Source: Reclinomonas americana ATCC 50394 (Eukaryota). Taken from it: a stretch of DNA of 58,048 bases. The stretch spans positions 75,155-133,202 of the forward strand of contig PS015160.1 in the NCBI GenBank assembly GCA_048213135.1, read 5' to 3'. Positions 1,348 to 55,876 of this stretch are shown piece by piece. How positions within the stretch are numbered: position 1 is the first letter of the stretch; the number at the start of each line of letters is the position of its first letter. Position numbers and translations under genes: made by a program. Under the pieces are notes generated by a model. It was not told the origin of the DNA, ran no database searches, and was given only the letters and a program-made list of their open reading frames with translations.

Positions 1348-4337
1348 ATGGCCGCACTCGGCACCGCCCACCGCCACTCTCCAGTCTCGGCGACAGCCAT
1401 TTTATTTATATGGTGGACAGCCGTGCTCGCCGTTGAATCGCCAACTGTCCTCTGTCCACGTGTGTGTGTGTGCGTGTGTTGTGTGTCGTGTGTGCATTGT
1501 AAATCGATGACAAACTACTCGCACGGTTTGTCTCTCTTTGTGTGCAAGTAGGCGTGCGTGCGTGTGCGCGCGTGCTTCTCATCTCATTCTGCTCACGTCA
1601 CTTTTTTGCATGCATTCTCGTGTCACACACACTCATGCACTCGCGCGCGCAGTGTACAGCGAGTACAACCGATGGCTGGTGGAACCCGACACGTTTCGCA
1701 CGGGGTTCACGTACATCCAGGTGCGTGCGAGTGAAGCGAGTGAGAGAAGGCATGGCGTTCGTCGCGACTCTCTGTCTGTGTGTGCGTCCACTTTGATCAC
1801 ACACCTTCAATTGGGGTTGTCTCGTCGTGTTCGCTGCATGCATACACACACACTCGGCATTATACACGCACACTCGCCTTTGTACACACGCACACGCATT
1901 CGCTGGTGGTTTGCGCGTCGAAGGTTGTCGTGTGTGTGCGCGATGGCCATGCCCACTCTCTTTTGTGTTTGTGAGTGCAGAAGGGCGACATTGTGCTGTA
2001 CTACTACAGCTGCCACTCGGAGCATGTTGCACAAATGCAGCAGACGATGCCCAATGTCGATCGAAGCTTGTGTCAGCTGCCGTTCAACACGGCACCAACG
2101 CGTGACAATATGCCCCTGCGATGCATTGTTGCGTAAGTGTGTGAAAGAGAGAGGGGGGAGTGAGGGAGTGAGAGAGGGAAGAGAGAAGAAATGATTTGGT
2201 GCATTGCCTGACGAGGAGACAGGTGAACAATGTGGAGTTCGATCACGTGGAGAATGGCGAGTACCTGGTGCAGTACATTACGCTGTCGCCGCTGGAGGAT
2301 CCCACAACGCCCGGGCTGGAGGTGCTCAGCCCGCCTCCGATTTATGACGTTGCGTGTGTGTGGTGTGGGGAGTGGGCCGCTGCTTGGGGGTGCTCATCGT
2401 TTGCGGGTACGAGCAGGAGGCGTACTGGGGGCACATTGCGTACCCGTCGGGGCATCCGAAGCACGCCGACTTTGTCATTCCCTTTGTCGATCTGTTGATA
2501 GAACCAGCGTTCATGGTGTTGGAGAATCCGTTCCGCAACTGTTGCGTTGTGGTGCTGGTCATATGGGGGGACCCAGTGTGAAGAGTGTGCATTCTTATGA
2601 CTTGGTGCGGGCGCGCAGATTTTGTGTCCAATGGCTTCCGCAAGGGCGGGCAGGCAGACGTGTACTTTTTGGAACCCGAAGGTCTCAAGGCGTACCAAGC
2701 ACAAATCACGTACATCAGCGCCACCGAGGACTTCTTGCCGGCGTTCTCTGTCAGGCTTCGATTGTTGCGTGGCTTGTGTCGCGTGGTGTGCAACTATTTG
2801 ATTTGGTGTTGTTGTGTGACGACGCCCCGATGCAGCCCCGGCGAACAAGAAGACCAGCCGTATCACTGGTGGGAGTTGGTGAAGCGCGGCTCAAGACCAA
2901 TACCCGTGCCGTTCTACTCGCAGCGTTGCGTGGCTGTGGGAGGGGGAGTAGGAGGAAGAAGGAGGAGGGAGGGAGAGATGGGAGGGAGAAGGGTGGGAGC
3001 AGGGTGGGCAGAAGANNNNNNNNNNNNNNNNNNNNNNNNNNNNNNNNNNNNNNNNNNNNNNNNNNNNNNNNNNNNNNNNNNNNNNNNNNNNNNNNNNNNN
3101 NNNNNNNNNNNNNNNNNNNNNNNNNNNNNNNNNNNNNNNNNNNNNNNNNNNNNNNNNNNNNNNNNNNNNNNNNNNNNNNNNNNNNNNNNNNNNNNNNNNN
3201 NNNNNNNNNNNNNNNNNNNNNNNNNNNNNNNNNNNNNNNNNNNNNNNNNNNNNNNNNNNNNNNNNNNNNNNNNNNNNNNNNNNNNNNNNNNNNNNNNNNN
3301 NNNNNNNNNNNNNNNNNNNNNNNNNNNNNNNNNNNNNNNNNNNNNNNNNNNNNNNNNNNNNNNNNNNNNNNNNNNNNNNNNNNNNNNNNNNNNNNNNNNN
3401 NNNNNNNNNNNNNNNNNNNNNNNNNNNNNNNNNNNGCAGCCGCAGCGGCAGCTGCGGCGGCGGCGGCGGCGGCGGCGGCCTCAGGGTGGGACGGCTCGGT
3501 GGATGAGCATGAACAGTATCGCGATAGTGCGACGGTGAGGAGGGAGAAAAGGGGGAAGGGAGGGGTAAGGAAGGGGAAAGAGAGTATGCGTGATTCTGTG
3601 TGGGTGTGGGTGTGGGGAGGTTTTGTTGGGGTGTGTACGTGCGTATGTTTGTGAGTAGATGTGTTCGCGTGTGTGCGTGTGAGTGTGTGTGAAAGTGAGC
3701 GTGTGTGTAGAGTGTGCGTTGTGTGTGTATGTTTGCGAGTGGGCGTGTTCGCGTGTGTGCGTGTGGTTGCAAATTGGGTGTGGGAACGTCTGTGAGTGAG
3801 TGTTTGTTGGTTTGTTGTGTACTGGTGAGCTTGTCTGCATTTCTGTCTGTAGGTGTGCGTATGTTTGCGGATTGTCTGTGGGCACGTGTGTGAGTGAGTG
3901 AGTGAGTGTTTGTTTGTTTATGTATGTGTAAAAGAGTGTTTGCAGTTCAGTCTGTTACTGTGCGTATGTTTGCGGATTGTCTATAGGCACGTGTGTGAGT
4001 GTTTGCTTGTTTGCTTGTGCGTGTAAGCGTATCTGTATTTCAGTCTGTTGGTGTGCGCATGTTGCGTGTTTGCGGGCTTGTGAGTGTCGTGTGTTTACAA
4101 GTATGTTTTGACTCCGCCTGCATGTGCGCTCACCCACTTTTTTTGTCGACGCAGCGCCACTTGGAGACGCTGCGCGGCGCTCTCGCATTCATGTCATACT
4201 CGCCGGAGAACTTCCGCAAGATTGTCACCATCGAGGCCATGATGGCCGAGTGCCTGGAGACTCTCGGCTTCCAGCCCTCGCGCATGACTGGTCGCCCACG
4301 CTCCGGCGGTGGTGCGGGTGTGGGGAAGCGGAAGTGA
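1348..4337 (+). CDS. Multi-exon hypothetical protein, possibly secreted; partly in an N-gap
   Basis: GT-AG exons join in frame: about 1348-1459 (hydrophobic N-terminus), 1653-1720, 2223-2321, 2417-2540, 2619-2743, 2836-2924. After the gap, 3436-3534 and 4155-4337 (TGA). Linkage across the gap is assumed. Confidence 0.6.
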
Positions 4338-10686: not shown

Positions 10687-11037
10687 TGGCGTTGTTTGAA
10701 TCGTCTTTTCTCGCGTCTCGCGACAAGATCACACTGGCAATGCGTGTCCCGCACCACAGATATCGAACCGACGTGCGGGTGTGGTTGAAGGCGTGTGTGT
10801 TCTCGCGACACTTGCGGATGAATCGCTGTATGTCGGCGATAAACTATATGCCCAAACGCGGTGAGTGGTGCGAGGCGCAAAATTCACTCAACACCTTTTC
10901 GTTGTCTTCGACGTCGAGATCCACACTATCAAGTGGTCGCTCACTTCTAGCTGTCGTGTGCTACTACTCTTTCTCCGTACGGCCCCCGTTGCGTGAGAAA
11001 GAGACCAAATAAAGCCCAAATCTGCTGATTATTATTA

Positions 11038-11991: not shown

Positions 11992-13069
11992 ATGACAGCA
12001 GGCAGTGAAGCGATCGCCTTTGTTCGCGCCAACGGCTTCTTTGCCGCGTACTTTGTCGGTGTCTCATGGCTGTGGTCATCGCCCACTGGCGTTTCGTTGG
12101 CTCCTCCCTCCTCTCATGTCTTCTCTCCGCAATCACTGACAAGATCTTCTCTGCACTGCTTAAGCATCGATTGTGGTCGCGCGTGGAGTCCATTGGTGAG
12201 ACACCGAGCATGATTCTGTTCCTGACCTCGGCGCTGCTGCCGACGGTGGTGTACTGGGCGCACTCGCTGGTGCTGATGATTGCGGACGCGTGGTCGCTGG
12301 TGCCGGAGCGGTACAAGACGCAGCCGAGCATGCGCTGGCGTTTCCGCGAGGCCATGAGTGCGGTGCCTGGTGTCCTCTCTAACACGGTGTTGGTGGCGTG
12401 GACGACTGCGTTTCTGGGCAACAGTGTGGCGCTGTTGCCGGCGGGTGTGCGCACCGAGGCGGAGGCGCTGCCGTCGTTCTGGCACTGCTTGCTGCTCATG
12501 GCCGTGTGTCCGCTGGTCACAGAGGTGTTCTTCTTCTATACGCACTGGGTGATGCACTATCCGCCGCTGTACGCTCTCATCCACAAGCAGCACCATACGT
12601 GGACGGCCCCGGAGGTTCTTTGCTCTTGTTTTTCGAACACCGCTGTGAGTGAGTGAGTTGCTCAGGTGTCGTGCAGGGGTTCACGGCGGTGTATTGCCAC
12701 TGGATCGAGCATCTGGTCGTGAATCTCGTCTCGGTGCTGGCACCGGTTGTTCTCACCGGAGCTCATGCGGCGGTGGCGGCCTCGTGGACCACTCTTGCCG
12801 TGCTCAACACGGTCAATTCGCACTCGGGCTACGCGTTGCCGGGCTTCCCCTCCCCGCTCTCCCACGATTACCATCATGCATCGTTGCGCGGAGAAGGGAA
12901 AAAGATGCGAGACAACTCCGTCCACCGCTGGCTCATCTCCTTGCGTATGCGCAGGTTTGACTACAACTATGGCGTGCTGGGCCTGCTGGATGCGCTGCAC
13001 GGGACCGACAAGGGCTACGACAAGTACTGCGAGCGGTTTGCTGCGCGGCAAGTGCCTGCAGGTGAGTGA
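11992..13069 (+). CDS. Fatty acid hydroxylase/sterol desaturase family membrane protein, four exons
   Basis: His boxes FYTHWVMH, IHKQHH and HSGY...HDYHHASFDYNYG (spliced), then LDALHGT. Confidence 0.9.
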
Positions 13070-13310: not shown

Positions 13311-16300
13311 ATGTCCAGTGGCCTCGCCGAGGCTCCTCTGTCGCCCACGGGCTTCTCGTCACTGGCGGCGTCGCCAAGTGCGGCGCTCATGTATGGATCG
13401 CCGAGTGGCGCGATCAAGCGAGCCCGATCGGCGTATCCTCTAATCTCGGACACGCAATCACCGACGGCGGCGGCGGCGACAAGGCCCGCGGCCAGTGTGG
13501 TCAGTGTCGTTGTGCGACCGCGCCGTGAAGTACAAGACGAGTTGCGGGTGCTGGAACATGCGCAGCGCAACGCTGTTCGCCGATCTCGATCTGGTGAGTT
13601 TTTGCGCGGGGGAATGTAGTGGTGCTGGATTGTTGAATGCTGATCCTCCTCCACAGCCGCGGCAGTACGGAGACCAAACTCGTCGTCGTCGTCGAGCATG
13701 GGAGTGACGGCCAGTGTTGGCGGCCACGAGTTTCTGTTGGCGCTGGCCGAGCGGCGTGCAGCGTCTCTCCTGGCGCAAAGCCCCCTGGCAGCCGAGGTCA
13801 GCTGCTGCTTTCGTGCCTTGCTTACGCGCTGTTAGCTCACCTCTTCCGCCGTCAACAAACACAGGGCGGTATGGCCGCAGCCTCCTTGTGGCGACGAAAT
13901 GGCGTCACACCGACCGCCACGTCAACACCAACACCGACTGGCGATGGCAGCCATGTGCCGCCGCCAGTGATGCAGCGGGCGGCCACCACCGGCGACCTTC
14001 CCTTCTCCAACAGCCGCACACTGGTTTCGGTACTCCACGAGCAGCAGCATCAGCGATCGGCCACCGTCGTGACGACCGCCGCCACCACGCCGGCATCGTC
14101 TCCGCCGCCCTCACGGAACGGTGGCTCACGTCAGCGTGCGGTGCAGTCGGCGGGTGGTGGGCGGCGGCGACCGTCGGTTCTCGTGCTGACTAGTCCCTCC
14201 ACGGCCAATGGTACTGGCGTCGGCGAGTCTCGCGAACCGAGCCCACCTTCACCCTCCCGCACATCGTCCCATACCGTCAACGCACCGGGAGGAGATCCGC
14301 GGAGCTCGTCACCCGTGCAGCAGCCGTTGAACATACAGCCCAAGTACGCCAGCTACGGAACGAAGGCCGAGTTTCTGCGTCGCATGGAACAGTTTGTCGT
14401 CACCCACCTCGATCACCAGCCGGCCGATCGGTGTGCTTCCGTTCACTGTCACTGCAGCCTCTTTCAGCAACGATGGATACTCATGAGGTGCTTTTCCTCC
14501 CCAATGTGCAGTACGAATCCTCGGATATGCCACGAGCGGCTTGCCGCCGTGCGCTCTCTGTTCGGTTGGTGGCGAAGAGTTGGAGAAGGTGTGGTGGGCG
14601 TGTCGGCGGTGACTGACCATCATCTCGACGCAGGCATGTTTATGCAAGAGTTCTCGTCGTACAGCCTCGTCTTGTCGTATGTAATGGACGAGTATGAGGA
14701 GTATGTGCGCGAGTGGAGCATGCTGCAGGAGCGGAACAACGAGTTGAAGATGCAGGTTCAGGACCTGCGCGGTGAGATGCGGCTGCACAACGAATCACTG
14801 GCCGACGCCATCAGCAAGAGCCGCAGCATCCTTGCGCAAGGAGGGTATGTAGGGTGGAAAGCGCGATGGCAGAGCTATTGGTCTCTCACTCGTCGTGTGA
14901 CAGTGGCGATCGTGCTGGTACCATTATGGAGGAGACGCAGAGGAATGGACTAAAGTTGGAAATTGAGGAGCTCAAGGAGCAAGGTGAGAGGCACCGTGGT
15001 CGCACTGTCTATGTTGGCGCAGTTTGCTCACGCAGTCACCGCCCACAGCCGCTCAGCTGCGGCGAGAAATTCTGGTGATGAACGGCGACAAGCGGCAGCT
15101 GGAGGCCTCGCTGACGAATCTGCAGAACGACGTGCAGCGCAGCGCATACTACGAGACGCAGTACATCAAGGCCAAGAGCGATGCTTTCGCGAGTTGCGCT
15201 GCCTTTGTGTCACAGGTCTCCCTCTAGAAAACCACGCCGTCTCTCATTCTCCTATCGCCTTCAGCCGTGGTCAAGATGGAGTCGGCGCTGGAGCAGGTGC
15301 GACTTGCCGACGAGCGGTTTGCCAAGGGCATCGAGCTGGAGCGACAAAAAGCCAATCTGCGCATGGCGCGCAAGTTTGACAAGCACGTGCTGACTGAAAA
15401 GAGACTGGTGAGTGTGGAAGGCACTCTTCTTCATCTTTTTTTGCATCCCAGCGTATCTCACGGTGGTGGTGCGCACAGCGGGAACAAGTGGAGAGATTAC
15501 GATATGCGTTGGATGTGGTGCTCCAACGCAACCGTGATTTGGCGCAAAAGCTCAACGAGCTGCGCGACCGCAAGCAGCGCGGCGGTTTCACGCCACGGCC
15601 CGACTGGGTCGCCATTGAGCAGACGCTGACCAAGAAGGGCATCGAGATGCCGCCTCCACCGCAGCCGAATGTGGTGTACGAGGTGCACTCGATGCCCATC
15701 TTTGACGCTGCCGCACAGCCAGTGGTTCCAGTCCGCGAGTCGGCGGCCGAGTGGCTGGAGCGCTTCCTCAAGGCGCACCACGACAAGACCCGTCTGCGAC
15801 GGCGCAAGTCAAAAAAATCGGCCGCCGAGATCCAGTTGCGCGAGCTTGCCCGTCGGCAAGGCGACACCGATGATGCCGTGTCGCTGTCGTCGAGCGATGA
15901 GGAAGACGATTTGTCGGAGGTGAACACCGACTGGGACCAGGCCCACGTGGAGAGTCTGTACATGGAGGCCATGAAGGATCCGTCATTCTCGGCCAGCTCG
16001 TTTTACGTGGAGCACTTGGTGGCGGCCCTGGTCGAGCTCACCAACGACTATGAAGTGGTGAGTGTGGTAGTGGGGTGTGTGTGGTGAAAGGAAAAGGATG
16101 CGCTGACTTGGTGAATGTGGGCCGGCAGCTGGAGAAGGAGATGGCGGGACTGAAGGACTTTGTCAACCTGGCCGGCCGCAAGGGTCGCATGGCAGAAAAG
16201 TGCGTGCACGCCGTTTCTGTCTTCTAACTCTCGGTGCTCCTCAATGATTCGCTTGGTGCAGGGCGGATTCGCAACTCAAGTACATTCCCGCACTCGGTTC

Positions 16301-17909
16301 CACGCCCGACATTCCCAAGTACCTGCGCGCCGTCGGCAAGATCCGCAATCGCAGCATGAGCAAGCGCGATGCCGAAATGTTTATTCGCGAGTTCTGGGCC
16401 GCCAAGGCCAAGTACGAAAGCGGCGGTCGCGTGATATCTGTTGCGTGCAGTCATCTGTGACGACATCTGAATGGTGGATTACTCATCTCAGCTCTCGCCT
16501 CGTCAATGTGCAGGTGGACGAGTTCATGTACCACCATCTGCTCAGCAAGCACGGCATTCACGGTGTCATTGTGGAGTTTGCGTACAACTTGCTGGAGGCG
16601 CTGAAGCAGTACCGATACGACCCGGACTGCGACATGTTTTTGAGGATCTTGGAGGGTCTGTTTGACGCGTGACTCTCTTGTGTCCCTCGCACGCATGTGT
16701 GTGTGGGTGACTCACTGGCGGTTTGGCGCGACACAGGCAACTTTAGCGAGGAAATCTACCAGGAGCAGATGAAGCTGGTGTCCTCCACGCAGCACGTGCT
16801 TCGCAAGGCCGACGAGGAGCTGCACGGTAAAAAGACACGCACGAACAAGTTGCGCAAGTCGGAGATCGTGGCCAAGCTGCGTGAACACTTGCCGGCCAAG
16901 AAGCACGAGAACATTATCAAGCTGCTGGTGGTGCGTCGCCACGCCACGTCTTCTTCGTCTCGATTGCCCCAGTGGTTCTCTCAACACCTTCCCTTTATAC
17001 AGTGCCTACACAACGACACCGACACGACTCGCAACGTGCTGGTGCGCTACAACAAGCTGTTCGAGGAGGATCGCAACTGCAATCAGTCGGACTTCCTGGA
17101 GGAGTTGCGCACGCAGCACATGTCGGAGCGAGCTGAGTTTCTCGAGGCGATCGAGGTGGCGGTGGCCAGTCGTGGCATGTCGACGATGGGGCCGCAGAAT
17201 GTGTGGGAGGTGTTTAGAGAGGTGAGTGGGGGAAGGGGAAGGGAGAGGAAAAGGGAGAAAGGGAAAGGGAAAGGGGGAGAAGAGTAGAAAGGGGAAGGGG
17301 GAGAAACATGAGATGCAGAGGCGAGGAGTGAGATATTAGTCAGAAGAGTGAATGCTGGAGTCAGTGCTGTTACTGCACGAGGAGTTCAGCAAGCGCCACA
17401 CGCACGCACGCACTGACCTCTCCCCGCCCACAGATCGACCCAGATATGCCGATATCCTATGCCGACTCGGTGCTACTAAAGGTCTTCAACGTCAAGGTCA
17501 AGACCTTGATCGAGAGGAGCGACAGCAACACCTTGTCACACACTCCACCGCTCTCCGTCGACTCGCTGCTCTCGGTGAGTCGAGAATCGCAGCTTGCGTT
17601 GTTGTCGTGTCCCTCCCGTTTCCCGTCGCTCACTCAGCATCCCTTCCCCACTTTCAGCAAATTCGCAAGTACGACATCAAACGCTTCACTCAGGCGCCAG
17701 TGGGACCGCTGCCCTTTGAGGAGGTTGGCGAAGACGAGGCGGACGACGATGGCTCCGACAGCGACGTCAACGACGACGAGAAGCACGATGTCGAACACGT
17801 CGAGCACACGTTCAACACGGGCGATTACATGGCCAAGGATCCCGACGATGCCGCCGCCGCCGCCACCGGCGCCTCTGCTTCCGCCATGCCGAGACCACCC
17901 GACGAGTGA
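13311..17909 (+). CDS. TSNAXIP1: Translin-associated factor X-interacting protein 1-like (cilia-associated coiled-coil protein), about 14 exons
   Basis: Coiled-coil middle, then LGSTPDIPKYLRAVGKIRNRSMSKRDAEMFIREFW and VEFAYNLLEALKQYRYDPDCDMFLRILEG, FEEDRNCNQSDFLEELRTQ. Confidence 0.75.
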
Positions 17910-17941
17910 TCTCACAAATGAATCGATAAACCACTGTGCGG

Positions 17942-20551
17942 TCACTTGCGTCGCTTGCCGGCATTTGCCGCGGGAGGGCTGGACGGTGATCCACTTTCGA
18001 GAAAGCCATTCTCGCGCAACACGGCCACCATCGACTCGAGGATGCGTTTGAAGCGGTCCGGACCGAGCATGATGCCGCCGTACCAGCGCGTGACTACCAC
18101 TGCCACGTTCTTCACGTCGGCCGTCTGCAGAAAGTACAAGAGCTGGCGGGAGAGAGGTGAGCACCCCCGGCATATCATACGTTAGCCGTGCGCCTGCGTG
18201 CACACCTTGAGACTCGCGCCACCCTCTCCATCGTCGTCTGTGTGCTCCAACACACGCCCCTGCCCGTCGTCCACCCGATACACAAAAATGCTGACAATGC
18301 TGACAGTCAGCACATCTCTCTCTTGGGCGCGCGGCATGGTACACCGTCTGCCACTCAACTTGTGCGTCGCCATGGCATACTTCTTCTCCATCAGCAAGTG
18401 GTACCGCATGGACTCCGCCTCCAGGGCGCTGTGCACCTCGGCGGCGTGCGATACGAACTTGCTCTTGCGGTCGACAATTGCCTCGGCGCTCTCGAACATT
18501 CTTCGCGAGAGGGAAGGAGAAGGGGGGATGAGAAGAGGGAAGAGGAGAGGGGAAGGTAAAGGCAAAGAATAACTGGCTTAGGGGTGCAACGAAGATGAAC
18601 AGGTTGATGAGAGAGAGAAAAGCAAGGACAAGTGCAGACTGGAGATGCGGAGGAGATCACAGCGAGTAAGTTGATGTGAGGGAAAGAAGAGGCAGAGACG
18701 ACAGAGAGCATACAGAAGGGTTGCAGAGTAATGAGAGGAAGAGGAAACGAAAAGTGGAGGCGGGGAGACGCAGTGTCACCATGATTGGGCTGATGAGAGA
18801 AGAGGGCAAGGCGGAGGCAAGCATGAGTGCAGGCCGGGAGCATGCAGAGAAGAGAAGGACGAATGCAGACGATGCGGAAGCGAGGCTGAGCAGGGAGAAG
18901 GGCCAGATGACAAAGAAAAGAGGACAGACTCATGAGAGAGAACGAAGTCAATGAAAGGCATGAGGGCACAGCTTCGACAACAAGACACTCAACTCTGGCG
19001 GAGGCGGCAACGCAGAGGCCAGTGCCAACGCCGCCCGTTCCCGCCCAAGTCCCTCCTGCTCATGCTCCTCCATGGCCGCAGCCGCCGCACGCTCGCTGGC
19101 AGACGACAGCGCATCAAGTTCCGAGGTCAACCTGCCCCAGCCCCGAGATGAGCATGCCACCAGCGAGAGAGAGAGAGAGAGAGAGGCAGACACACCACTG
19201 CGCCCACTGATAAAACGGCTGCTCCTCCGGCTGCTCTCGATACACGTCGGCCAGCTGTGCATACATGCGAGAGATGGCCGCAGAAGGCAAGGTTCCACGC
19301 AGNNNNNNNNNNNNNNNNNNNNNNNNNNNNNNNNNNNNNNNNNNNNNNNNNNNNNNNNNNNNNNNNNNNNNNNNNNNNNNNNNNNNNNNNNNNNNNNNNN
19401 NNNNNNNNNNNNNNNNNNNNNNNNNNNNNNNNNNNNNNNNNNNNNNNNNNNNNNNNNNNNNNNNNNNNNNNNNNNNNNNNNNNNNNNNNNNNNNNNNNNN
19501 NNNNNNNNNNNNNNNNNNNNNNNNNNNNNNNNNNNNNNNNNNNNNNNNNNNNNNNNNNNNNNNNNNNNNNNNNNNNNNNNNNNNNNNNNNNNNNNNNNNN
19601 NNNNNNNNNNNNNNNNNNNNNNNNNNNNNNNNNNNNNNNNNNNNNNNNNNNNNNNNNNNNNNNNNNNNNNNNNNNNNNNNNNNNNNNNNNNNNNNNNNNN
19701 NNNNNNNNNNNNNNNNNNNNNNNNNNNNNNNNNNNNNNNNNNNNNNNNNNNNNNNNNNNNNNNNNNNNNNNNNNNNNNNNNNNNNNNNNNNNNNNNNNNN
19801 NNNNNNNNNNNNNNNNNNNNNNNNNNNNNNNNNNNNNNNNNNNNNNNNNNNNNNNNNNNNNNNNNNNNNNNNNNNNNNNNNNNNNNNNNNNNNNNNNNNN
19901 NNNNNNNNNNNNNNNNNNNNNNNNNNNNNNNNNNNNNNNNNNNNNNNNNNNNNNNNNNNNNNNNNNNNNNNNNNNNNNNNNNNNNNNNNNNNNNNNNNNN
20001 NNNNNNNNNNNNNNNNNNNNNNNNNNNNNNNNNNNNNNNNNNNNNNNNNNNNNNNNNNNNNNNNNNNNNNNNNNNNNNNNNNNNNNNNNNNNNNNNNNNN
20101 NNNNNNNNNNNNNNNNNNNNNNNNNNNNNNNNNNNNNNNNNNNNNNNNNNNNNNNNNNNNNNNNNNNNNNNNNNNNNNNNNNNNNNNNNNNNNNNNNNNN
20201 NNNNNNNNNNNNNNNNNNNNNNNNNNNNNNNNNNNNNNNNNNNNNNNNNNNNNNNNNNNNNNNNNNNNNNNNNNNNNNNNNNNNNNNNNNNNNNNCACAG
20301 AGATGCGGCATGGAGGAGGCTCAGTGCTTACTGCTGCAACAACAGCAGCAGAAGTCTCCACGTAGAAGGTGACTTGCAGAGTGACGCGTGTGCTGCTCAG
20401 TGTGAGCTGCAACATGTGATGAGCGCGTGATTGCTGTCGCTCTCTCTCTCTCTCTGTGGCATGCGCACACCTTCCACTCGTCGTCTTGCGTGCCACGTGT
20501 GAGCTCGTCAGAGAACACACTGGAGAGCATCTCAAGTGACTCGGCGTCCAT
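17942..20551 (-). CDS. IMPACT: IMPACT family protein (RWD plus UPF0029 domain), spanning an N-gap
   Basis: DRKSKFVSHAAEV, ATHNIFVYR, DDDGEGGA, VAVVVTRWYGGIMLGPDRFKRI. The N-terminal exon MDAESLEMLSSVF is RWD-like. Confidence 0.9.
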
Positions 20552-22043: not shown

Positions 22044-25000
22044 ATGTATTCGCACAACATCGAAGTCTCCGTGCAAGACGCCGCGGCCGATGTCGGCAAG
22101 GAAGGTTCGTCGCGCGAATAGGCAAACCCTCTCCCCCCAAAAGAGANNNNNNNNNNNNNNNNNNNNNNNNNNNNNNNNNNNNNNNNNNNNNNNNNNNNNN
22201 NNNNNNNNNNNNNNNNNNNNNNNNNNNNNNNNNNNNNNNNNNNNNNNNNNNNNNNNNNNNNNNNNNNNNNNNNNNNNNNNNNNNNNNNNNNNNNNNNNNN
22301 NNNNNNNNNNNNNNNNNNNNNNNNNNNNNNNNNNNNNNNNNNNNNNNNNNNNNNNNNNNNNNNNNNNNNNNNNNNNNNNNNNNNNNNNNNNNNNNNNNNN
22401 NNNNNNNNNNNNNNNNNNNNNNNNNNNNNNNNNNNNNNNNNNNNNNNNNNNNNNNNNNNNNNNNNNNNNNNNNNNNNNNNNNNNNNNNNNNNNNNNNNNN
22501 NNNNNNNNNNNNNNNNNNNNNNNNNNNNNNNNNNNNNNNNNNNNNNNNNNNNNNNNNNNNNNNNNNNNNNNNNNNNNNNNNNNNNNNNNNNNNNNNNNNN
22601 NNNNNNNNNNNNNNNNNNNNNNNNNNNNNNNNNNNNNNNNNNNNNNNNNNNNNNNNNNNNNNNNNNNNNNNNNNNNNNNNNNNNNNNNNNNNNNNNNNNN
22701 NNNNNNNNNNNNNNNNNNNNNNNNNNNNNNNNNNNNNNNNNNNNNNNNNNNNNNNNNNNNNNNNNNNNNNNNNNNNNNNNNNNNNNNNNNNNNNNNNNNN
22801 NNNNNNNNNNNNNNNNNNNNNNNNNNNNNNNNNNNNNNNNNNNNNNNNNNNNNNNNNNNNNNNNNNNNNNNNNNNNNNNNNNNNNNNNNNNNNNNNNNNN
22901 NNNNNNNNNNNNNNNNNNNNNNNNNNNNNNNNNNNNNNNNNNNNNNNNNNNNNNNNNNNNNNNNNNNNNNNNNNNNNNNNNNNNNNNNNNNNNNNNNNNN
23001 NNNNNNNNNNNNNNNNNNNNNNNTTTCGGTAAGCGTACGAGAGAATGCATCGTGCATCTCCAACCCCACTTCCTCATTTGCCCTGCCCTTCCCCACCCTC
23101 GCCACTCACCGCTCCAGCAACTCCGCCGCAGCATGATCGACAATGAAACGGCAGTTGCGGTGCGACTGCAAGCACGACACCGGCACGTGTGTGGTCTGTG
23201 GGCCTTCCAGGGCCGCCTTGACGATGCGCGACTTGCCCTCGCCGGTGGCCAGCACAAGAATGCGGCGTGAGTTGGCAATGGTCTCCACGCCCATCTGTAG
23301 GCGAGGAGCGTGAGGAGGCGACGAGTGCAAGAGAGAAAGGCGACGCATGAGAGCACAAACCGTCAGCGCACGCAGCGGCACATTCTCGGCACCGAAGAAC
23401 GCCGTGGCAGCATCGCGACCTGCATCGCTGGTGAGCAGCAGCAGCAGCAGCAACACGGGGGAACACGCAAGTACGAAACGAGTCTGCTCGTCCAGGACCA
23501 CCATGCGGGTGCGTGTATGCAACGGGGTTCCGGGCTCATTGAAGGCCTGACGAGTGCGCACGCGNNNNNNNNNNNNNNNNNNNNNNNNNNNNNNNNNNNN
23601 NNNNNNNNNNNNNNNNNNNNNNNNNNNNNNNNNNNNNNNNNNNNNNNNNNNNNNNNNNNNNNNNNNNNNNNNNNNNNNNNNNNNNNNNNNNNNNNNNNNN
23701 NNNNNNNNNNNNNNNNNNNNNNNNNNNNNNNNNNNNNNNNNNNNNNNNNNNNNNNNNNNNNNNNNNNNNNNNNNNNNNNNNNNNNNNNNNNNNNNNNNNN
23801 NNNNNNNNNNNNNNNNNNNNNNNNNNNNNNNNNNNNNNNNNNNNNNNNNNNNNNNNNNNNNNNNNNNNNNNNNNNNNNNNNNNNNNNNNNNNNNNNNNNN
23901 NNNNNNNNNNNNNNNNNNNNNNNNNNNNNNNNNNNNNNNNNNNNNNNNNNNNNNNNNNNNNNNNNNNNNNNNNNNNNNNNNNNNNNNNNNNNNNNNNNNN
24001 NNNNNNNNNNNNNNNNNNNNNNNNNNNNNNNNNNNNNNNNNNNNNNNNNNNNNNNNNNNNNNNNNNNNNNNNNNNNNNNNNNNNNNNNNNNNNNNNNNNN
24101 NNNNNNNNNNNNNNNNNNNNNNNNNNNNNNNNNNNNNNNNNNNNNNNNNNNNNNNNNNNNNNNNNNNNNNNNNNNNNNNNNNNNNNNNNNNNNNNNNNNN
24201 NNNNNNNNNNNNNNNNNNNNNNNNNNNNNNNNNNNNNNNNNNNNNNNNNNNNNNNNNNNNNNNNNNNNNNNNNNNNNNNNNNNNNNNNNNNNNNNNNNNN
24301 NNNNNNNNNNNNGACGAGAAATGCGCATCGTGGTCGTAATCGAGCTTTGGCGATCGTGAATACTGTAGCGAGTGAGCAAGAGGAGTGCGGGAGCTTAGTT
24401 CACAGTACACATGGAGCATTGCGTACATGAGTGAGCATTCAATCGATCTTGAATACTGTAGCGAGTGAGCAAGAGGAGTGCGGGAGCTGAGTTCACAGTG
24501 CGCATGAAGCATTGCGTACACTCAATCGATCTTGAACACTGTACGGAGAAAGTGAGGCAACCGAGGAGGTGCTTCGTAGACTGAAGCAAGCTTGATCGAT
24601 GTTGAATACTGTGGCGAGTGCAACTTGAGCTGAGATTGCAGTTCCACATGATTGCAGTGAGCGACTGAGCTAGATTTAGTACGCTCTTGAATGCTGCGAC
24701 AGGGGAAGCGAGTTTGTTGATGAATGTTCAACAAGCGATTGAGTGGTGTTGGTGGAGGGCGACAGGGAGTCTCATTTCTGACTCCACGCAGCGCCTGGGC
24801 ATGGGCGAGGAGCACGCGCACTTCCTCAACCTGCCGTTCTACCAGACTGGTGCGCAAGCTGTTCTATAGTCGCTCATCTTTCGCCATCGTGACTCACAAA
24901 TCTCTCGTTAAATATAGGCACCATCGAGAAGAAGACTGTGGGCGAGGAGGACGTGCAGATTGTGTACGAGCTGCTGCAGAAGCTCCGACCACACCACATT

Positions 25001-26488: not shown

Positions 26489-26890
26489 TCATCTCTTGGG
26501 TTTGATAATTCGCTGCCGAAACGCCGCCTCGCCCGCCTCCGCGTAATCCGCGCGCAAGTGCGCAAATAGTGGCGAATCACACGGAATGACGTCCGACTCG
26601 AGCTGCACGCCATCCGCTCGCCGATACGTGAAATACGCAATCTCATCACTGCCCTCCAGCGACAGCGCCTCCGCCGTCTGCGCATACAGACCCTCCAGCG
26701 TCAGCGGCAGTGGAATACGAACGCGCATCACTCGCGGCTGCTGCTGTTGCTGCTCGACAGTCACATCCACCGCACTGACACTGATCCGCTAATGAGCACA
26801 GAAAACGGAAGAACTGGCAGAGTGTGGAACGAAACGCTCGTGTCGCGCTGGAGTCGATCACGTGAATGTCAAGCAGAGGCCGGTCGGACT
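26489..26890 (-). CDS. Last two exons of a hypothetical protein; 5' part missing
   Basis: Exon SDRPLLDIHVIDSSATR splices in frame to AVSAVDVTVEQQQQQPRVMRVRIPLP...IIKPKR*. The upstream low-complexity intron runs into the gap. Confidence 0.55.
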
Positions 26891-33557: not shown

Positions 33558-34009
33558 ACATTCACCAACAAACAAGCAACAGCTGTCTTGATGACCAAGT
33601 TCAACCGTATCCAAAACGTTTTCGCGAGTGCTGGGCGAGCCGGCGCCGCAAAGAACACATTTATAGGTGCAGGGCCGCCTGTGGGGTGTACGGGTATACG
33701 TAGACTTTGCAGAGCACGTCTGAAATGTAGTGCACGTGCCGAGAAGAAATTCGAATTCGAATCCGGCGGCAAGCTGCAGCTGCAGGTGCATGTTTGGCAA
33801 GTATTGGAAATGTGTTCCACGGCAGGTGCTGCTCCGAGCCGAGTACGCACAGTTACAGGTGCATCCGTGCCGGTGAAGCCTGCGAGACTAGAGACCACCT
33901 GCTGCTGGCCATGATGGGCGATGGACTCGATGCATTGTTGTATAGGCGATGCAGTACGGCTATGTCCAATGACCATCAAGACAGCTGTTGCTTTTTTGTT
34001 GGTGGATGT
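33558..34009. repeat. About 450 bp segment bounded by 36-bp inverted repeats of a dispersed motif
   Basis: 33558-33593 and 33974-34009 are reverse complements with 2 mismatches. The same motif occurs at 5016-5071 and 25881-25912. Confidence 0.75.
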
Positions 34010-34048
34010 TCATGAATTGTTGCAGTTTNNNNNNNNNNNNNNNNNNNN

Positions 34049-34500
34049 GAGTGGCCACTTGTGATGCCGGCCAAGGACGACGGCACGAAGAATGGCGCTG
34101 ATGATGCGGGGGTCGAGCGGGAGGGCCCGCGCACGTGAGGAGGCGACGGCCTTGAAGGCGGAGTGAGGCGAAGCCGATTCCGACGATCGCAGCGTCTGTC
34201 TGGGGTGTAGATGGCAGTTGAGCCGCGCATGGCGGCGGTGACGAGGGCGTAGTCGAAGAGGCTGATGCTGAACACGTCTCGATGAAAAGCCGACAGCGCC
34301 GAGACGTAGTTCTTGATGGTGCTTGGAGCGAGATTCTTGCCGGTAAGCGCGGCGATGAGGTTGATGGTGTCGCTCTCCGAGAGCGGGAAGCGGAGGTTGT
34401 AGTTGCTGGCGAGCCGTGCCACAGTCTTGCGGTACTGAAGCTGAGTGCCGGGTTGGGTGGCGGCCACGAGAAGGTCGTCACCGGTGAACGTCAGTGGTTG
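34049..34500 (-). CDS. Tyrosine recombinase N-terminal (core-binding) part; catalytic part not visible
   Basis: TQPGTQLQYRK...LAPSTIKNYVSALSAFH...AMRG, in a frame overlapping the MT domain. Confidence 0.7.
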
Positions 34501-37334
34501 CGAGGTGTCAGGCTGAGCCAGTCTGGTGAAGAGGGTGGAAGCGTCGCCTCCGGGAGCGGTGCCGGTCGACCAAACGCGCTCGGCTGCGCGACCGGCGAGA
34601 GAAGCCAAGCGACCAGGCGCAGGTGAGAGTGAGCGTTTGGCTCGATGCGGAGTGAGCGACTGCGAAGAGGTGTCGGAACCGCGGCGTGCTCGCCCAGGTC
34701 CACCGCGTCGAGAGCGTGGCGAGCGAGACCGCCGTGAAACACCGCCGACGGCCACCACGGAGCGATCAGAATCAGCCTCGAGCCAGGGAGGGCCGTCTCG
34801 ATAAAGTGGCTGAGCGTGCGGCCGACCAGGGGAAACGGAGGGCAGGCGTACATCAACGACTGGTTCCATGGCTGAGTGAAGGCGTCCACGGCCGCTGCCT
34901 TCGGCGACGGGCCGAACGAGTAAAAGACCGGTGTCTTGGCGCTGTCGTCCGACGCGAATAGATCGACCGTAGGCTTGCCCCACCGGAGACACAGAGCCGC
35001 AAAGGCGCTGTCCGCCAGCGACCAGTCGTGTCTCTGGAAAACCCGAGATGGCACGTCGACTGCGTTGAGGGCTGACGGAACGTACTTGGCCGTGAATGAG
35101 ACTTGGTTGGTGGCGAGGAGGACGAGCAGTTGGCGCAAGGTGTTGTTGAGGGCCGGTGACCGAGAGGTTTGACGCTGGAGCAGGTGCACCACTGCCAGGT
35201 TGTCGCAGACGAACATCACGCGCCGAGACCGCAGAAGGTCCATGAATNNNNNNNNNNNNNNNNNNNNNNNNNNNNNNNNNNNNNNNNNNNNNNNNNNNNN
35301 NNNNNNNNNNNNNNNNNNNNNNNNNNNNNNNNNNNNNNNNNNNNNNNNNNNNNNNNNNNNNNNNNNNNNNNNNNNNNNNNNNNNNNNNNNNNNNNNNNNN
35401 NNNNNNNNNNNNNNNNNNNNNNNNNNNNNNNNNNNNNNNNNNNNNNNNNNNNNNNNNNNNNNNNNNNNNNNNNNNNNNNNNNNNNNNNNNNNNNNNNNNN
35501 NNNNNNNNNNNNNNNNNNNNNNNNNNNNNNNNNNNNNNNNNNNNNNNNNNNNNNNNNNNNNNNNNNNNNNNNNNNNNNNNNNNNNNNNNNNNNNNNGTCT
35601 CGGCGGCGAAGAGTACCGCCAAAAGCTCCTTGTGCGTGATGTGAAGGTGAGACCAGCCCGCTGGGAAAGGTCCGTTGATGAGGCGTTGGTCCGGAGAGGG
35701 AGGAGTTGATGTTGCTGTTGATGTTGATGTCGAGGTGAGGTTGAGGCGTGGAGCGAGCACTGACGCCGCGTAGCCAGAGCTGCTGGCGTCGGTCGTCACT
35801 CGCACCGCGTGAGTGAAGGAGGGCAGTCGAGCCGGCCGCCAAAGGACCTGCTGGTCGAGGTTGNNNNNNNNNNNNNNNNNNNNCACCAGAACTGGAGATC
35901 GTGCAAGGCCTCCGGCGACAGCTTGACCGAGTGGCGCCAACGCTTGGCCACCCGAAGCATTGTTGGCGAGGTGTGGAGGGAGTTGTACAGTTGACGAAGG
36001 AACACTCGACACAGAGGCAGAGCGATGGAGTGCGACTGGCAGCGGCCGATGAGGCGAGCAAGTTGCCTGGCGGGCAGAGAATTGCCATGAGTACGAGCCT
36101 GCTCCATCATGCGCCGTGCTAACTGCTGAGTTTCTTGTGCCGACGACTCTGTCACGCGAAAGATCGGAGATGCCGTGCAGTCTATTTCTACCCCTAGGTA
36201 CGTGGTGCGCTGAGTTGGGTGAAACGTGCCCTTGTCGTGCTGCACTCTGACCCCGAGGCGGTAGAAGAGAAGGAGGAGAAGGTCGCGATTGCGTATAGCT
36301 TCTTCCTGACTGGCTGACACCACCAAGAAATCGTCTACGTACGAGAAGATCGTGATGGAGTAGCGGCGACGAAGATAGTGAGCGATGGCGTTGCTGAATC
36401 TCTGCATCGTGGCTGGACTGCTCGCGTAGCCAAACGGACAACAGTTGTGCACCCACATCTGATCTGCCAGACGACACGCAAATAGGTTCTTGTCTTGCGG
36501 AGCGAGAGCGAGGTGAAAGAAGAAGTCTTGAGCGTCGTGTGTGGTCATCCAACAACCCGGAAAGAGCACTTGACCGATCTCTCGGAGATTGGGAAAACGA
36601 AAGTGGTCTACTGAGACGTGCCTGTTTAGAAAGGACAGATCGGAAATCAACCTGTACTTCTGAGGTGCGCCCGGAGACGTGAGCTTCTTCTTGATGATGA
36701 ACGCTGGACTCACACAAGGATACAGATGTGCATCGCTGAGAGGAATGCGAGTGACCGCGCCCACTTTCTCCAACCGAACGAGTTCTGTCTGAAGCCAGCT
36801 CTGCTCCCTCTGCCCGATCGAACGAGACGGTATCGAGAACGGAGATGGACGAGAAAGCCACTGAACTGGCACCCCCTCTCTGACCCACGATAGCAACTGT
36901 TGGTCGCGAGGTGTCGGAAGCAACACCCGCTCCCACCAGCCCAGATGAAACGGTTTTCGCAGGGTGAGAGGAATAGGTTCTGACGGATCGAGTGAAGGCA
37001 GAAAAGGCGGAGCGCGGAGAGAGGAAGGCAGCATCGAGACCAGAGGTGGAGAGACCGGCTCTAGCGTGCTGTGTGCGACTGACTGGAGGGACAGCCGCGG
37101 TGGAACTAGACTGTGTGTGACTGACTGGAGTGCAGGTGGTGTGCTCAAGTCTATCGAGGACGTGGAAAAAGTTGGAGGAGAAGAGAGTGGAGGAGGTAGC
37201 GCCGGCAGACGAGGTGATGCGTGTGTCGGTGGAGTGAGACGCAGCTCTGGTGCCGGACTGGGACCCGAGACGGCGTTGGTGTTGGTGGCGGTGGTGGCGG
37301 TGGGGATAGGGGGCGACCGACCAGCCCTCCTCAA
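34491..37334 (-). CDS. DIRS pol: reverse transcriptase, RNase H and Dam-like methyltransferase domain, interrupted by gaps
   Basis: RT: KYRLISDL, HDAQDFFFH, CPFGYASSP, YVDD. RNase H: TTDASSSG, HITHKELLAV, CDNLAVV, LNAVDVPSR. MT: VDLFAS, DAFTQPW, YACPPF. Confidence 0.9.
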
Positions 37335-49275: not shown

Positions 49276-50431
49276 AGACAAGAAAGGGAGACAGAGTACG
49301 AGGCGTTCGCACGCACGCACGCAGTACGGTGTTTGTGGGAGTGAGTGTGTTTGTACGTATGTATGAATGTATGTTTGCGTGCGTGTGTGTGTGCGTGTAA
49401 ATATGCATGTGCAGTATGGCGAACGTGGGAGTGCGTGTGTTTAAATGTATGTACGTATGTGTATGTATGTATGAATGTATGTTTGCGTGCGCGCGTGTGT
49501 GTGAGAGAGAGAGAGTGTGTGTGTGCGTCACCCCTTTGTGTGTGTGTAAATATGTATGCATGTAGTATGCTGTATGTGGGAGTGAGTGCGTGTTTGTACG
49601 TATGTGTGTATGTGTATGTATGCACGAATCTATGTTTGCGTGTGTGTGTGCGTGTGTGTGAGTGTGTGTGTAAATATGCATGTATGCAGTATGGTGTGCG
49701 TGGGAGTGAGTGTGTATTTATGTGTATGTATGTATGAATGTATGTTTGCGTGTGTGTGTGTGTGCGTGTGTGTGTGTAAATATGCATGTATGCAGTATGG
49801 TGTGCGTGGGAGTGAGTGTGTGTTGATATGTATGTACGTATGCGTATGTATGTATGAACGTATGTTTGCGCGTGTGCGTGTGTGTGCGTGCGTGCGTGAG
49901 TGAGTGAGTGTATGTGTGTCCGTGCGTGTGTGTGTGTATGTATGTATGTACGAACGTATGTATGTGTTTGCGCGTGTGTGTGCGTGGTGCGTGTGTGTGT
50001 CTGCGTGTGGGTGTGTGCGTGCTTGTGTGTGTGAGTGGAAGACGACTCTGACAAGAAGGAGTGCGACTTCCCCATTTTGATTTCCGTGTTGCAGCTGGAC
50101 ACTCCCATGCAAAAGCTCTTTGACGCATACGCCAAGAAGAACAATGTGCAAGCGAACGCCATTCGCTTCATGTTGGACGGAGTGTTGCGTGTCGATCCCA
50201 ACAACGAACGCGCATCCCTCCTCCTCACCATTGTCTGTGCGCAGCCGCATCAAGCCGGAAGACACGCCGCGATCGCTTCACATGGAGGACAACGGTGAGT
50301 GTTGAACGGCCTTGTCTTTCGCCTGCACATGCTGGTGCTGAATGACGGCGGCAGATGTGATTGATGCAATGCGCGACCAAGAGGGCGGTTGGTCGATGGA
50401 CGAAGTGGTGGGCATGGAGGTCGACGAGTGA
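48579..50431 (+). CDS. Tandem (di-)SUMO-like protein
   Basis: Exons 48579-48602, [gap], 48764-48813, 48874-48906, 48972-49021, 49097-49105, 49167-49202, 50095-50183, 50245-50294, 50355-50431. Domain 2 reads VTIKVQ...TPMQKLFDAY...IRFMLDGVRIKPEDTPRSLHMEDNDVIDAMRDQEGG. Confidence 0.8.
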
Positions 50432-50780
50432 GGGGGGCGATAAAGGGGTTGGAGGAAGTGTGGTTTTCTGCGCGATTCAGATAAAAGAGCCCGATGTTGG
50501 CAGGGGAAGGGGTTGCGGCTATTATGGACAAGAAGCGATGCGAGAGTATGGCGGAGAACGGGGAGCAGAGGGGTGCGGAGGGAGGGAGGGAGGGAGAGAG
50601 AGAGAGACAGCCAGAGAACGAAAAGAGAGAGAGAGAAAGAAAAGGCAACGCAAGATTGCTGGAGCGAAAGAAAAACGGGAAGCAAGAAAAGCGCGGAGAG
50701 AGAGAGAGTCGGACAGAGAGATTGCTGAAGCGGAAGACGAACCACATTCCGCTCCCCGATGAACAAGTGTGACCCAATGC

Positions 50781-53658: not shown

Positions 53659-53782
53659 TCTTATCTCTCTCAATCACACACAATCACAAATATCGGACCG
53701 CAATTTCGTTCATCGTTTGCAACCGTCAGCTTCGTTCCAACCGTCACGTTTTCTTTTGTTTTGTTTTGTTGTTGTGTTTGAT

Positions 53783-53905
53783 ATGGCGGAAGGTGCGGCG
53801 GCAGAAGAGAACAGTAAGTCTTTTCCTTGTTGTTTTTGCTGTTGCTTTTGTGTCCTTGGAAAGAGAGTGACAACTGCCGTTGCGCGCGCGAAAAGGCTCT
53901 CTCTT

Positions 53906-53936
<31 letters not shown>

Positions 53937-53968
53937 NNNNNNNNNNNNNNNNNNNNCTCTCACTCCTC

Positions 53969-54019
<51 letters not shown>

Positions 54020-55876
54020 AGTTGTCACGACCTTTCTCACTGTCTGTCGCCCTTGCTCTTCCCCGTCTCCTCTCGTCTCTCACTTCCTCTCTTGTCTGCC
54101 CTTCACTGTCGCTCGTTGTCTATCTCCTCTAGTCTGTGTTGTCTCTCCTCAGTCTCCTCACTCTTCTCTGCTTCTCTACTCTCCAACGCTCACCATTCAC
54201 TGTCTCCCCTTCTGTCATCACAATCATGGCACTCGTCCTCTCTCCTGTTCTCTTCCATTGAGTTTCTGTGCTCTCACTTCTCAGTCTCCTCAATCTTCGG
54301 TCTCCAACTCTCACCCTTCCCTGTCTCTCCCTCCCATCACTCCTGCATCGCTCCTCCCTGATCTTCTTTGATCTCCTCTGCTTGCTCTTCCATCGAGTCT
54401 CTGTGCTCTCTCTTCTCAGTCTCCTCTCCCTGTCTCCCCCTCCATCACTCCTACATCGCTCCTCCCTGATCTCCTCTGTTGTCTGTCATCTGTTTTTCCA
54501 TCGCGTCTCTGTGCTCTCTCATCTCAGTCTCCTCACTCTTCTCTCCCTTCTCTACCAATCTGTCTCCAACCCTCACTCCCTTTCCTGCCATCACTTGCAC
54601 TCCAGCATTCTTCTTTTCCATCTAGTCTCTGTGTTCACCTGCACTGCGCGCTTTCATCCTTTCGCGATGTAGCTCACTCTTCTCTCCTTTCTCTGCCCTT
54701 CTGTTTTCTCCTGCTGCCCAAATTGTTCTCCTTCTTCTCCTTCTTTTCATCCTCTCTCTCACACCCACTCTGCGCTCTCTCAAATCATTCAGTCTCCTCC
54801 CCCTTCTTCTCCCTTTCCCTCCCGTTTCTTCTCCCATTCCTTTTCTCCCGTTTCTTCCCCCTTCCATCTCCCTCCCCCTTTCCATTTCCCTTTCCTTTTC
54901 TCTCCCCCCTCCATCCCTCCCTCACTCCCTCTCCCCCTCGTCCCCCTTTCCCCACTTCTCCCCCCAGGACGACGCGTGGGCTCCGCGGCCAGCACCGACC
55001 TCCTCCACGGTGGTCGTGCCGAAATCATCCTCGCCAGCTCCTTTGATGAGAGCTACCCTGTCGTTGCGTCCTTCTCCCTCGCTCCCTCTCACTCCCCATG
55101 TCACTCACTCTTGTCTCTCTACAGAGCAATGTTCTTGACGAGTTTCGTCGCGTGTTGTCCTCCTGCGCGCCCGTGTGATCTTCCAGCTCACGCGAGATAT
55201 GCACAGCTCCGAGTCCACATTCTGGGTGACCACTGGCATGTATCCGCAAGAGTTTGTCGTGGCCTTCAAGGCACCAGTGCGGCTCTCCAATGTGGCTTTT
55301 GTGTGTGCAAATGGTACGCATGGGTTATCACACAAAATCTGTGCATCTTAGTCTTCTTTGTCACTCTCTCTCTCCCCTCTCTCTCCCTCTCTCTCCCCTC
55401 TCTCCCTCCCTTCTCCCCTTACCCTTCCCCCTCCCCCCCTCCAACAGTGAAGCGCTTCGAGATCGCCCGCAGCGAGGAAACACAGCCAATCAACTGGAAA
55501 GGCGTGCTGGAGCAAGGTAACACNNNNNNNNNNNNNNNNNNNNNNNNNNNNNNNNNNNNNNNNNNNNNNNNNNNNNNNNNNNNNNNNNNNNNNNNNNNNN
55601 NNNNNNNNNNNNNNNNNNNNNNNNNNNNNNNNNNNNNNNNNNNNNNNNNNNNNNNNNNNNNNNNNNNNNNNNNNNNNTATCCATGCCTCCCCTTCCTTGT
55701 CCTCCTCTCTCTTTCCCTCTCACACCACCCCCACAGACCTGGAGGAACGCCACGGCCTGCAGCGCGAGACCGTCTCCCTGAATTATCTGCCTGCTCGCTT
55801 CGTCAAGTTCACCATTCGCAGCGGGTGGCTCGACTTTGCCGCCGTACACTCAATCTCCATCAAGGGCACCGAGTGA
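53783..55876 (+). CDS. IFT25: Intraflagellar transport protein 25, six exons
   Basis: Spliced sequence LASSFDESYPVSNVLDDSESTFWVTTGMYPQEFVVAF...ARFVKFTIRSGWLDFAAVHSISI. Confidence 0.9.

Follow-up and report, generated by a model that had tools for sequence, protein, structure and literature searches.

The DNA analysed here is a 58,048-base window of the Reclinomonas americana ATCC 50394 genome (GenBank assembly GCA_048213135.1, contig PS015160.1, positions 75,155 to 133,202), and the subject of this account is a class of 5' splice sites (donors) found in it. Outside 20 runs of N the window has a G+C content of 57%, and both of its strands bear eukaryotic genes, in which short introns are numerous. 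Among the products, Pfam-type identities were obtained for a PhyH-like protein, a fatty-acid hydroxylase family member, WD40 and RRM proteins and a protein kinase, and further genes encode a glucosamine-6-phosphate deaminase, an IMPACT/UPF0029 protein, SUMO, IFT25 and an EF-hand protein. A fair share of the introns in these and other genes opens with H/GTTNCGT, in which the slash marks the exon end, H is A, C or T, and intron bases are counted from G+1. Such a donor resembles the GTNCG donors of the same DNA with one extra T after the GT, and this displaced class is very probably real.

Seventeen donors of this kind had been listed in a first-pass annotation, and the motif is present at all of them (GTTGCG eleven times, GTTTCGT four times, GTTACGT and GTTGAGT once each), always preceded by A, C or T. 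The status of these sites as donors was judged from homology and gene modelling, and here the list held in part: six are pinned by homology and three are recovered by models blind to the donor motif, while one is ambiguous and seven are unconfirmed. Three additional class donors, at 2128, 2349 and 2764, all in the first gene of the window, bring the class to 20 sites (Table 1).

Table 1. Class introns, candidate class sites and other homology-pinned donors (window coordinates; nt, nucleotides)
Feature	Position	Strand	Junction	Gene	Basis or remark
Class intron, 72 nt	12883-12954	+	ATC/GTTGCGC	fatty-acid hydroxylase family	pinned, Pfam spacing
Class intron, 69 nt	18291-18359	-	CAA/GTTGAGT	IMPACT/UPF0029	pinned, UPF0029 profile spacing
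Class intron, 60 nt	23420-23479	-	CTC/GTTTCGT	glucosamine-6-phosphate deaminase	pinned, alignment to 2bkv_A (B. subtilis NagB)
Class intron, 61 nt	50184-50244	+	AGT/GTTGCGT	SUMO	pinned, SUMO2 chain spacing
Class intron, 62 nt	55063-55124	+	GTC/GTTGCGT	IFT25	pinned, alignment to relatives
Micro-exon, 17 nt	55125-55141	+		IFT25	between two class introns; alignment to relatives
Class intron, 65 nt	55142-55206	+	CGA/GTTTCGT	IFT25	pinned, alignment to relatives
Class intron, 72 nt	15193-15264	+	CGA/GTTGCGC	long coiled-coil gene	every donor-blind run; sole in-frame GT
Class intron, 78 nt	2541-2618	+	ACT/GTTGCGT		frame continuity; first donor-blind run
Class intron, 53 nt	12091-12143	+	GGC/GTTTCGT	5' end of hydroxylase gene	donor from donor-blind runs
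Class intron, 95 nt	2128-2222	+	ATT/GTTGCGT	first gene	donor-blind runs; new
Class intron, 65-68 nt	2349-2416	+	GAC/GTTGCGT	first gene	donor-blind runs; new
Class intron, 72 nt	2764-2835	+	ATT/GTTGCGT	first gene	sole donor phase joining both open frames; new
Candidate	16440-16513	+	TCT/GTTGCGT		ambiguous; in-frame competitor at 16431
Candidate, intron-like	26781-26835	-	AGC/GTTTCGT		branch-like TGCTCAT and CAG downstream; no homology
Candidate, intron-like	49022-49096	+	ATT/GTTGCGT		branch-like CGCTGAC and CACAG downstream; no homology support
Candidate	2925-2931	+	AGC/GTTGCGT		downstream enters N gap 3016-3435
Candidate	48603-48609	+	ATT/GTTACGT		N gap 48636-48682 inside putative intron
Candidate	26276-26282	+	CAA/GTTGCGT		weak coding scores; no CT[CG]A[CT] motif
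Candidate	29212-29218	+	GCT/GTTGCGT		fits only a 730-nt intron to 29941; no Pfam match
Candidate	40765-40771	+	CAA/GTTGCGA		negative coding scores; no Pfam match
Other pinned donor	12615	+	GAG/GTTCTT		
Other pinned donor	18205		AAG/GTGTGC		
Other pinned donor	23360	-	ACG/GTTTGT		
Other pinned donor	39755		CTT/GTGCGT		
Other pinned donor	50295		ACG/GTGAGT		

Class introns pinned by homology

At the six pinned junctions the GT of the class motif was needed in every case, so that a GU is retained at the cleavage site. In the hydroxylase gene the exon ends at position 112 of the FA_hydroxylase profile, and residues F102 to T118 of the read-through align at about positions 116 to 132; the gap of three profile positions is thus filled by one residue if the intron at 12883 is spliced, against 25 if it is read through, and no other GT yields this junction. 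In the IMPACT/UPF0029 gene the upstream exon reaches UPF0029 position 34 and the downstream exon resumes at 66, and the 31 positions in between are matched by 30-33 residues after splicing from 18359, compared with 53 after read-through. The glucosamine-6-phosphate deaminase gene has two introns close together, and excision of the class intron and of the 66-nt intron 23295-23360 (ACG/GTTTGT) leaves exactly the number of residues found between positions 163 and 182 of 2bkv_A; the second junction then reads RALT/MGVETI, where 2bkv_A has KALTMGIQTI.

The remaining three pinned introns, of 61, 62 and 65 nt, must be spliced because their lengths are not multiples of three. In the SUMO gene the exon ending in FMLDG corresponds to FDG(55) of the SUMO2 chain, in which DTPAQ occupies positions 62-66, and splicing from 50184 gives V-RIKPE-DTPRS, placing six residues ahead of DTP, the same number that precedes DTPAQ in the chain. 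The IFT25 model, in which the micro-exon lies between two class introns, aligns without gaps to 16 of the 17 relatives found by exon search, and skipping the micro-exon opens an eight-residue gap. For the second of these introns, use of other GT/AG pairs close by would put a surplus residue ahead of the conserved TFW.

It could be argued that the class is a modelling artefact, arising from misplaced boundaries or from in-frame segments that are in fact retained coding insertions. Seven of the 17 listed sites are unconfirmed and one is ambiguous, and three of the pinned class introns, those of 72, 69 and 60 nt, keep the reading frame and contain no stop codon. Such an origin is nevertheless highly improbable: the 61-, 62- and 65-nt introns need to be removed for both frame and homology, and the in-frame segments start with GT, end with AG, contain a branch-like motif and sit where the relatives have no residues.

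The introns 12883-12954, 18291-18359 (minus), 23420-23479 (minus) and 23295-23360 (minus) all have lengths that are multiples of three and lack an in-frame stop. Reading through such an intron adds just 20-25 residues, and a gene finder that relies on stops misses it.

Gene models and candidate sites

The donor-blind models were produced with a gene finder of our own, which scores coding potential and GT..AG limits and, in later runs, the branch and acceptor, and which contains no donor motif. A scan of flanking coding potential at all GT sites was also tried and dropped, as it was dominated by GTs inside exons. The intron opening at 12091 has an uncertain acceptor and, given an ATG further downstream, may be non-coding. 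The ambiguous site at 16440 competes with an in-frame CGC/GTGATATC at 16431, 9 nt upstream, which is slightly preferred by the coding score.

Several protein searches gave no result. No Pfam match was obtained for the exons adjoining 2128-2925, 26835, 29212, 40765 and 44546, no homologue was found in a protein search with exon 2621-2761 of the first gene, and a protein search with the hydroxylase open reading frame (ORF) likewise gave no match. No match was obtained either in PDB searches with the IMPACT protein, the upstream exon of IFT25 and the last SUMO exon. Further intron-like candidates lie at 4061 and 44546.

Composition of the class donors

For comparison, 24 other donors were assembled from pinned junctions and donor-blind models. 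Left out of this set were introns longer than about 160-200 nt, introns without a branch-like motif or inside the ORF 33976-37671, introns of genes that share their DNA with a stronger gene on the opposite strand, and introns offering several equally good in-frame GTs (e.g. 9461, 9823, 10894, 11945, 13525, 16067, 31240, 56568).

Over positions +4 to +7 the 20 class sites read GCGT (11), TCGT (4), GCGC (2), GAGT, GCGA and ACGT (one each), so that NCGT, NCGC or NCGA is present in 19 of 20. At +3 to +6 the 24 other donors read GCGT (3), GAGT (3), ACGC (2), GAGA (2), TTGT (2) and 12 single words, and GCGT, GCGC or ACGC occurs in six. The proposal of the first-pass annotation, by which each class donor is a GTNCG donor lengthened by one T, agrees with this pattern, in which +4 to +7 is mostly NCGT. 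It agrees as well with the behaviour of U+7, a position outside the GTTGCG search word, which is present in 11 of 14 listed GTTGCG donors and in 8 of the 36 other GTTGCG sites (p=6.7e-4), and in six of the eight that are pinned or modelled (p=0.008).

A second difference concerns the last exon base. Of the 12 class donors that are pinned or modelled none has G(-1), against 19 of the 24 other donors (p=4.9e-6); when all 20 class sites are counted, none has it (p=3.3e-8). Among the strong GTR[CA]G donors of the comparison set, 9 of 11 follow G (p=6.7e-5 against the class). The class donors thus lack the G(-1) preference of the other donors; active avoidance of G goes beyond the data.

The non-class donors are highly degenerate after the GT (e.g. 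GTCTTTGC, GTCAGCTG, GTCTGTTT, GTGATTGA), yet 19 of 24 follow G. At 12615-12676 on the plus strand the donor GAG/GTTCTTTG is used, its junction joining Pfam positions 39 and 42, and a textbook GTGAGTGAGT situated 33 nt downstream of 12615, which would leave a 29-nt intron, is bypassed.

This degeneracy suggests another way of reading the class, namely that there is no special register, that the organism specifies its donors loosely, and that GTTNCGT is tolerated or favoured through recognition by U6, U5, Prp8 or a protein binding (T)NCGT, U1 pairing being irrelevant. Well-supported donors as divergent as those just cited, GTTCTTTG included, agree with it, as does the poor pairing of the class sites with both U1 models described below. 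The degenerate donors, however, mostly keep G(-1) (19/24), whereas the class donors never have it, and the NCGT block of the class mirrors the one seen in strong ordinary donors, exactly one base further in and with U+7 included. Moreover, pairing with the U6 ACAGA box, as presented in bioRxiv 2022.06.08.495308, suits GUUUGU and not GUUGCGU. Loosely defined donors are therefore an unlikely explanation.

Abundance and the surrounding intron

The word GTTGCG accounts for 50 of the 6402 GT sites in the window and stands at the start of five among the 63 introns that the first donor-blind run predicted, against 0.5 expected (p=1.4e-4); of the 19 GTTGCGT heptamers, 11 are at listed donors. In a test independent of coding, CT[CG]A[CT] followed by YAG was sought at 45-110 nt after each GT. 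This signal follows 799 of 6199 GT sites overall (12.9%), 8 of 18 GTTGCGT (p=0.001) and 4 of 6 GTTTCGT (p=0.003). Most short introns of the window carry CT[CG]A[CT] 8-45 nt ahead of the AG.

That the class is a major one, as had been claimed, can be upheld within the window, where it makes up 6 of the 11 homology-pinned introns, a sample biased towards genes flagged in the first-pass annotation, and about 6-16% of the short, well-formed introns in the donor-blind predictions, as read from lists. Class introns resemble the other introns in length (53-95 nt) and in their CT[CG]A[CT] branch-like motif.

Two further origins may be considered at this point. The class might descend from a mobile "introner" family with a terminal GTTGCGT that inserted after non-G bases, its shared 5' end being inherited. 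A near-identical heptamer across many introns would be expected of such a family, the non-G at -1 could reflect target-site preference, and 37 of the 50 GTTGCG occurrences fall on one strand. Once the first 8 nt are trimmed, however, class introns resemble one another no more closely than other introns do (mean pairwise local score 7.8, compared with 8.8 for the others; the highest score is 14 in either set), neither target-site duplication nor terminal repeat was seen at the junctions read by eye, and the intron positions interrupt old conserved motifs. U12-type introns, for their part, form a second donor class without G(-1) preference, with RTATCCTT as donor and TCCTTAAC as branch consensus. 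These words are absent from the 12 class introns, whose branch-like motif is common to other introns of the window, and a U12 nature was rejected. Since the class introns form no sequence family and share both length and branch-like motif with the other introns, a separate minor-type spliceosome is unlikely, and an introner origin can be regarded as very unlikely indeed.

A proposed displaced pairing register

The explanation favoured here, held at about an even balance of belief and doubt as a whole, is that these are ordinary GT-AG introns with a consensus H/GTT-N-C-G-T, in which pairing with the recognising RNA is displaced by one base. The class introns would be genuine substrates of the ordinary (major) spliceosome, and their donor would correspond to the strong GT-N-C-G-T donor of this organism with one extra U after the GU. 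Cleavage would be kept at the GU while the pairing of +3 to +6 moves by one base, C+5, G+6 and U+7 taking the place of C+4, G+5 and U+6. In this shifted register G+1 would lie opposite C9 of U1 and U+2 would be mismatched. As C+5 and G+6 are nearly invariant, the partner RNA probably has a G opposite the C, an example being a U1 5' end reading ACGUAC.

A looped-out U, that is, a bulge at +2/+3, would also bring the downstream bases into line. The shift is favoured over the bulge because a bulge leaves C9 free to favour G(-1), whereas the shift predicts no preference for G; the retained G(-1) expected of the bulged register was absent from the class (0/12 against 19/24). Sliding both intron ends by one base was rejected, as it gives TT..GC or TT..GG ends.

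Duplexes were modelled for two U1 5' ends, the standard one (as given in PMC4856993) and the ACGUAC variant reported for Mastigamoeba balamuthi, both assumed for this organism. With the standard end the mean energies were -2.1 kcal/mol for the pinned class donors, -1.7 for the modelled ones, -1.1 for the other class donors, -6.3 for the 24 other donors and -3.06 for 1500 random GT sites; with ACGUAC the corresponding values were -3.7, -5.0, -5.0, -7.1 and -4.34 kcal/mol. With ACGUAC, 17 of the 20 class sites formed their best helix in the +1 register; with the standard end seven of the 20 did so, and an eighth site was mixed.

Several of these results, and others besides, count against displaced pairing. 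Class sites pair with the standard U1 end more weakly than random GT sites do (-1.1 to -2.1 against -3.06 kcal/mol), and with ACGUAC (-3.7 to -5.0) they reach about the random level (-4.34), the three sites whose helix falls outside the +1 register with that end all being GTTTCG. The A(-1) that would be expected to pair in a shifted register is found at just 5 of 20 class sites, with C or T at 15. The rule of a non-G exon end, which held when class and other donors were compared, is not significant against the background of the window: no more than 15.7% of its GTT words follow G, which gives the absence of G from 17 sites a probability of 0.055, and G(-1) is present in none of 14 GTTGCG sites that are donors and in 7 of the 36 that are not (p=0.17). 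The class was moreover defined by a pattern that itself fixes +3 and +6, and the 24 donors set against it were filtered by hand from our own gene models. Lastly, the site CAG/GTTTCGT at 42917 on the plus strand is intron-like although it follows G, and if real it would be a class donor in a 5' untranslated region.

The same candidate at 42917 would give an intron of 81 nt, with a CTCAC branch-like motif and a CAG directly 5' of an ATG. On the minus strand, a perfect class heptamer occurs after G at 674 (GTG/GTTGCGTG), within the homology-supported coding exon of the PhyH-like gene, where it is evidently unspliced.

The first-pass annotation had suggested a variant U1/U6 or an alternative register as the cause. 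In our model class sites pair worse than random GT sites with the standard U1, and a simple alternative register on that U1 is therefore thermodynamically insufficient. As modelled, the register idea is geometrically consistent and thermodynamically weak, and it gains from a partner whose G faces the invariant C. The class sites may be read by a dedicated small nuclear RNA (snRNA) variant, or by a protein.

One form of this would be an additional, dedicated snRNA of U1 type, or a paralogue of U1 whose 5' end has gained one base and is complementary to GUUNCGU, which reads the class in full register. It would accord with the tighter consensus of the class (1.19, 1.59 and 1.35 bits at +4, +5 and +7) relative to the other donors (0.23, 1.26 and 0.45 bits at +4, +5 and +6), and with the finding that neither modelled U1 end pairs with the class better than with random GT. 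Altered U1 5' ends are described for Archamoebae in bioRxiv 2022.06.08.495308, and human variant U1 genes in PMC5159530. Our literature search, for its part, gave no U1 whose pairing region had been enlarged by a base, and a dedicated reader of the class is considered rather improbable. Within the window itself, no snRNA gene was found at gathering score, and at E<=1 there were just sub-threshold chance matches in repeats.

A broader proposal would have the organism operate two parallel donor codes, G/GTNNGT in the normal register and a tightly defined Y/GTTNCGT read either by its own U1-type snRNA, whose 5' end would be lengthened or altered, or through an obligatory one-base shift; it is entertained here as a fairly remote prospect.

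Relation to known systems

One-base shifted and bulged +2/+3 U1 registers have both been proven in human cells (PMC4856993). As reported there, the bulges at +2/+3 and at +3 account for 68 and 51 of 201,541 sites, or about 0.03% each (Table 3 of that paper), and shifted or bulged U1 pairing for at most 2.1% of the sites in a curated human list. The human shifted register (Roca and Krainer 2009, as presented in PMC4856993) resembles the class in cleaving at a GU, in lacking G+5 and having its G and U one base further in, and in following a non-G exon end, there because G+1 occupies the place opposite C9 of U1. It differs from the class in its rarity, and its test sequence has an A(-1) that pairs with U10 (PMC4856993, Table 2); the class of the window is abundant, mostly has C or T at -1 and has C in place of A at +5, and its register is a proposed one. 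The human bulges (Roca et al. 2012, as presented in PMC4856993) share with the class a GUU donor, in which, for the human sites, one U is looped out and the bases downstream pair normally; the class makes up about 10% or more of the introns of the window and lacks the G(-1) preference.

A different kind of precedent is offered by Archamoebae, in which U1 5' ends have co-evolved with donors, GUUUGUU with AACAAAC in Entamoeba and GUGCGC with ACGUAC in M. balamuthi (bioRxiv 2022.06.08.495308). An atypical donor consensus is matched there by a changed U1, and the ordinary donors of the window likewise favour C+4 and include G/GTTTGT. These are whole-genome shifts of consensus in a single register, and no second class displaced by one base is described there. 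Among the papers listed in a literature search on motif and concept, which covered main texts, none described a donor class that is both abundant and displaced by one base. Closest to it in print are the human registers, which are rare, and the co-evolution of donor and U1 across whole genomes in Archamoebae.

Other features of the window

A single-exon gene at 242-1306 on the minus strand encodes a PhyH-like dioxygenase whose best relative shares 65% identity and the next about 50%; several of the nearest relatives are named as proteins of marine bacterial metagenome-assembled genomes, and the gene may, from these resemblances, have been transferred. At 33976-37671 on the minus strand lies a very long ORF broken by N runs, without a Pfam match; a retroelement-like look by eye is unsupported.

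Upstream of the SUMO gene, at 48580-48900 on the plus strand, there is a degenerate second SUMO-like piece, whose first exon end, ...ACGATT/GTTACGT, resembles ...ACCATT/GTTGCGT at 49022. The SUMO gene itself contains a GT/GTAT-type microsatellite of about 0.9 kb at 49100-50030 (plus), to which sub-threshold, chance mir-297-like matches were obtained. No transfer RNA genes were found in the window.

Significance of the displaced class

For annotation, the class would mean that gene finders trained on GTNNGT miss these introns, that the many which are stop-free and a multiple of three in length pass unnoticed as inserted peptides, and that micro-exons such as that at 55125-55141 would be lost. 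Shifted and bulged U1 pairing has so far been regarded as an uncommon means of rescuing unusual human sites. An organism with such a layout in at least a tenth of its introns would offer a natural setting in which to follow how U1, U6 and U5 fix the cleavage site under a moved register, and it would also show whether the 5' ends of snRNAs co-evolve with a second donor class. Should the two-code proposal prove true, R. americana would be the first organism in which a non-canonical U1 register is a standard, selected definition of the splice site.

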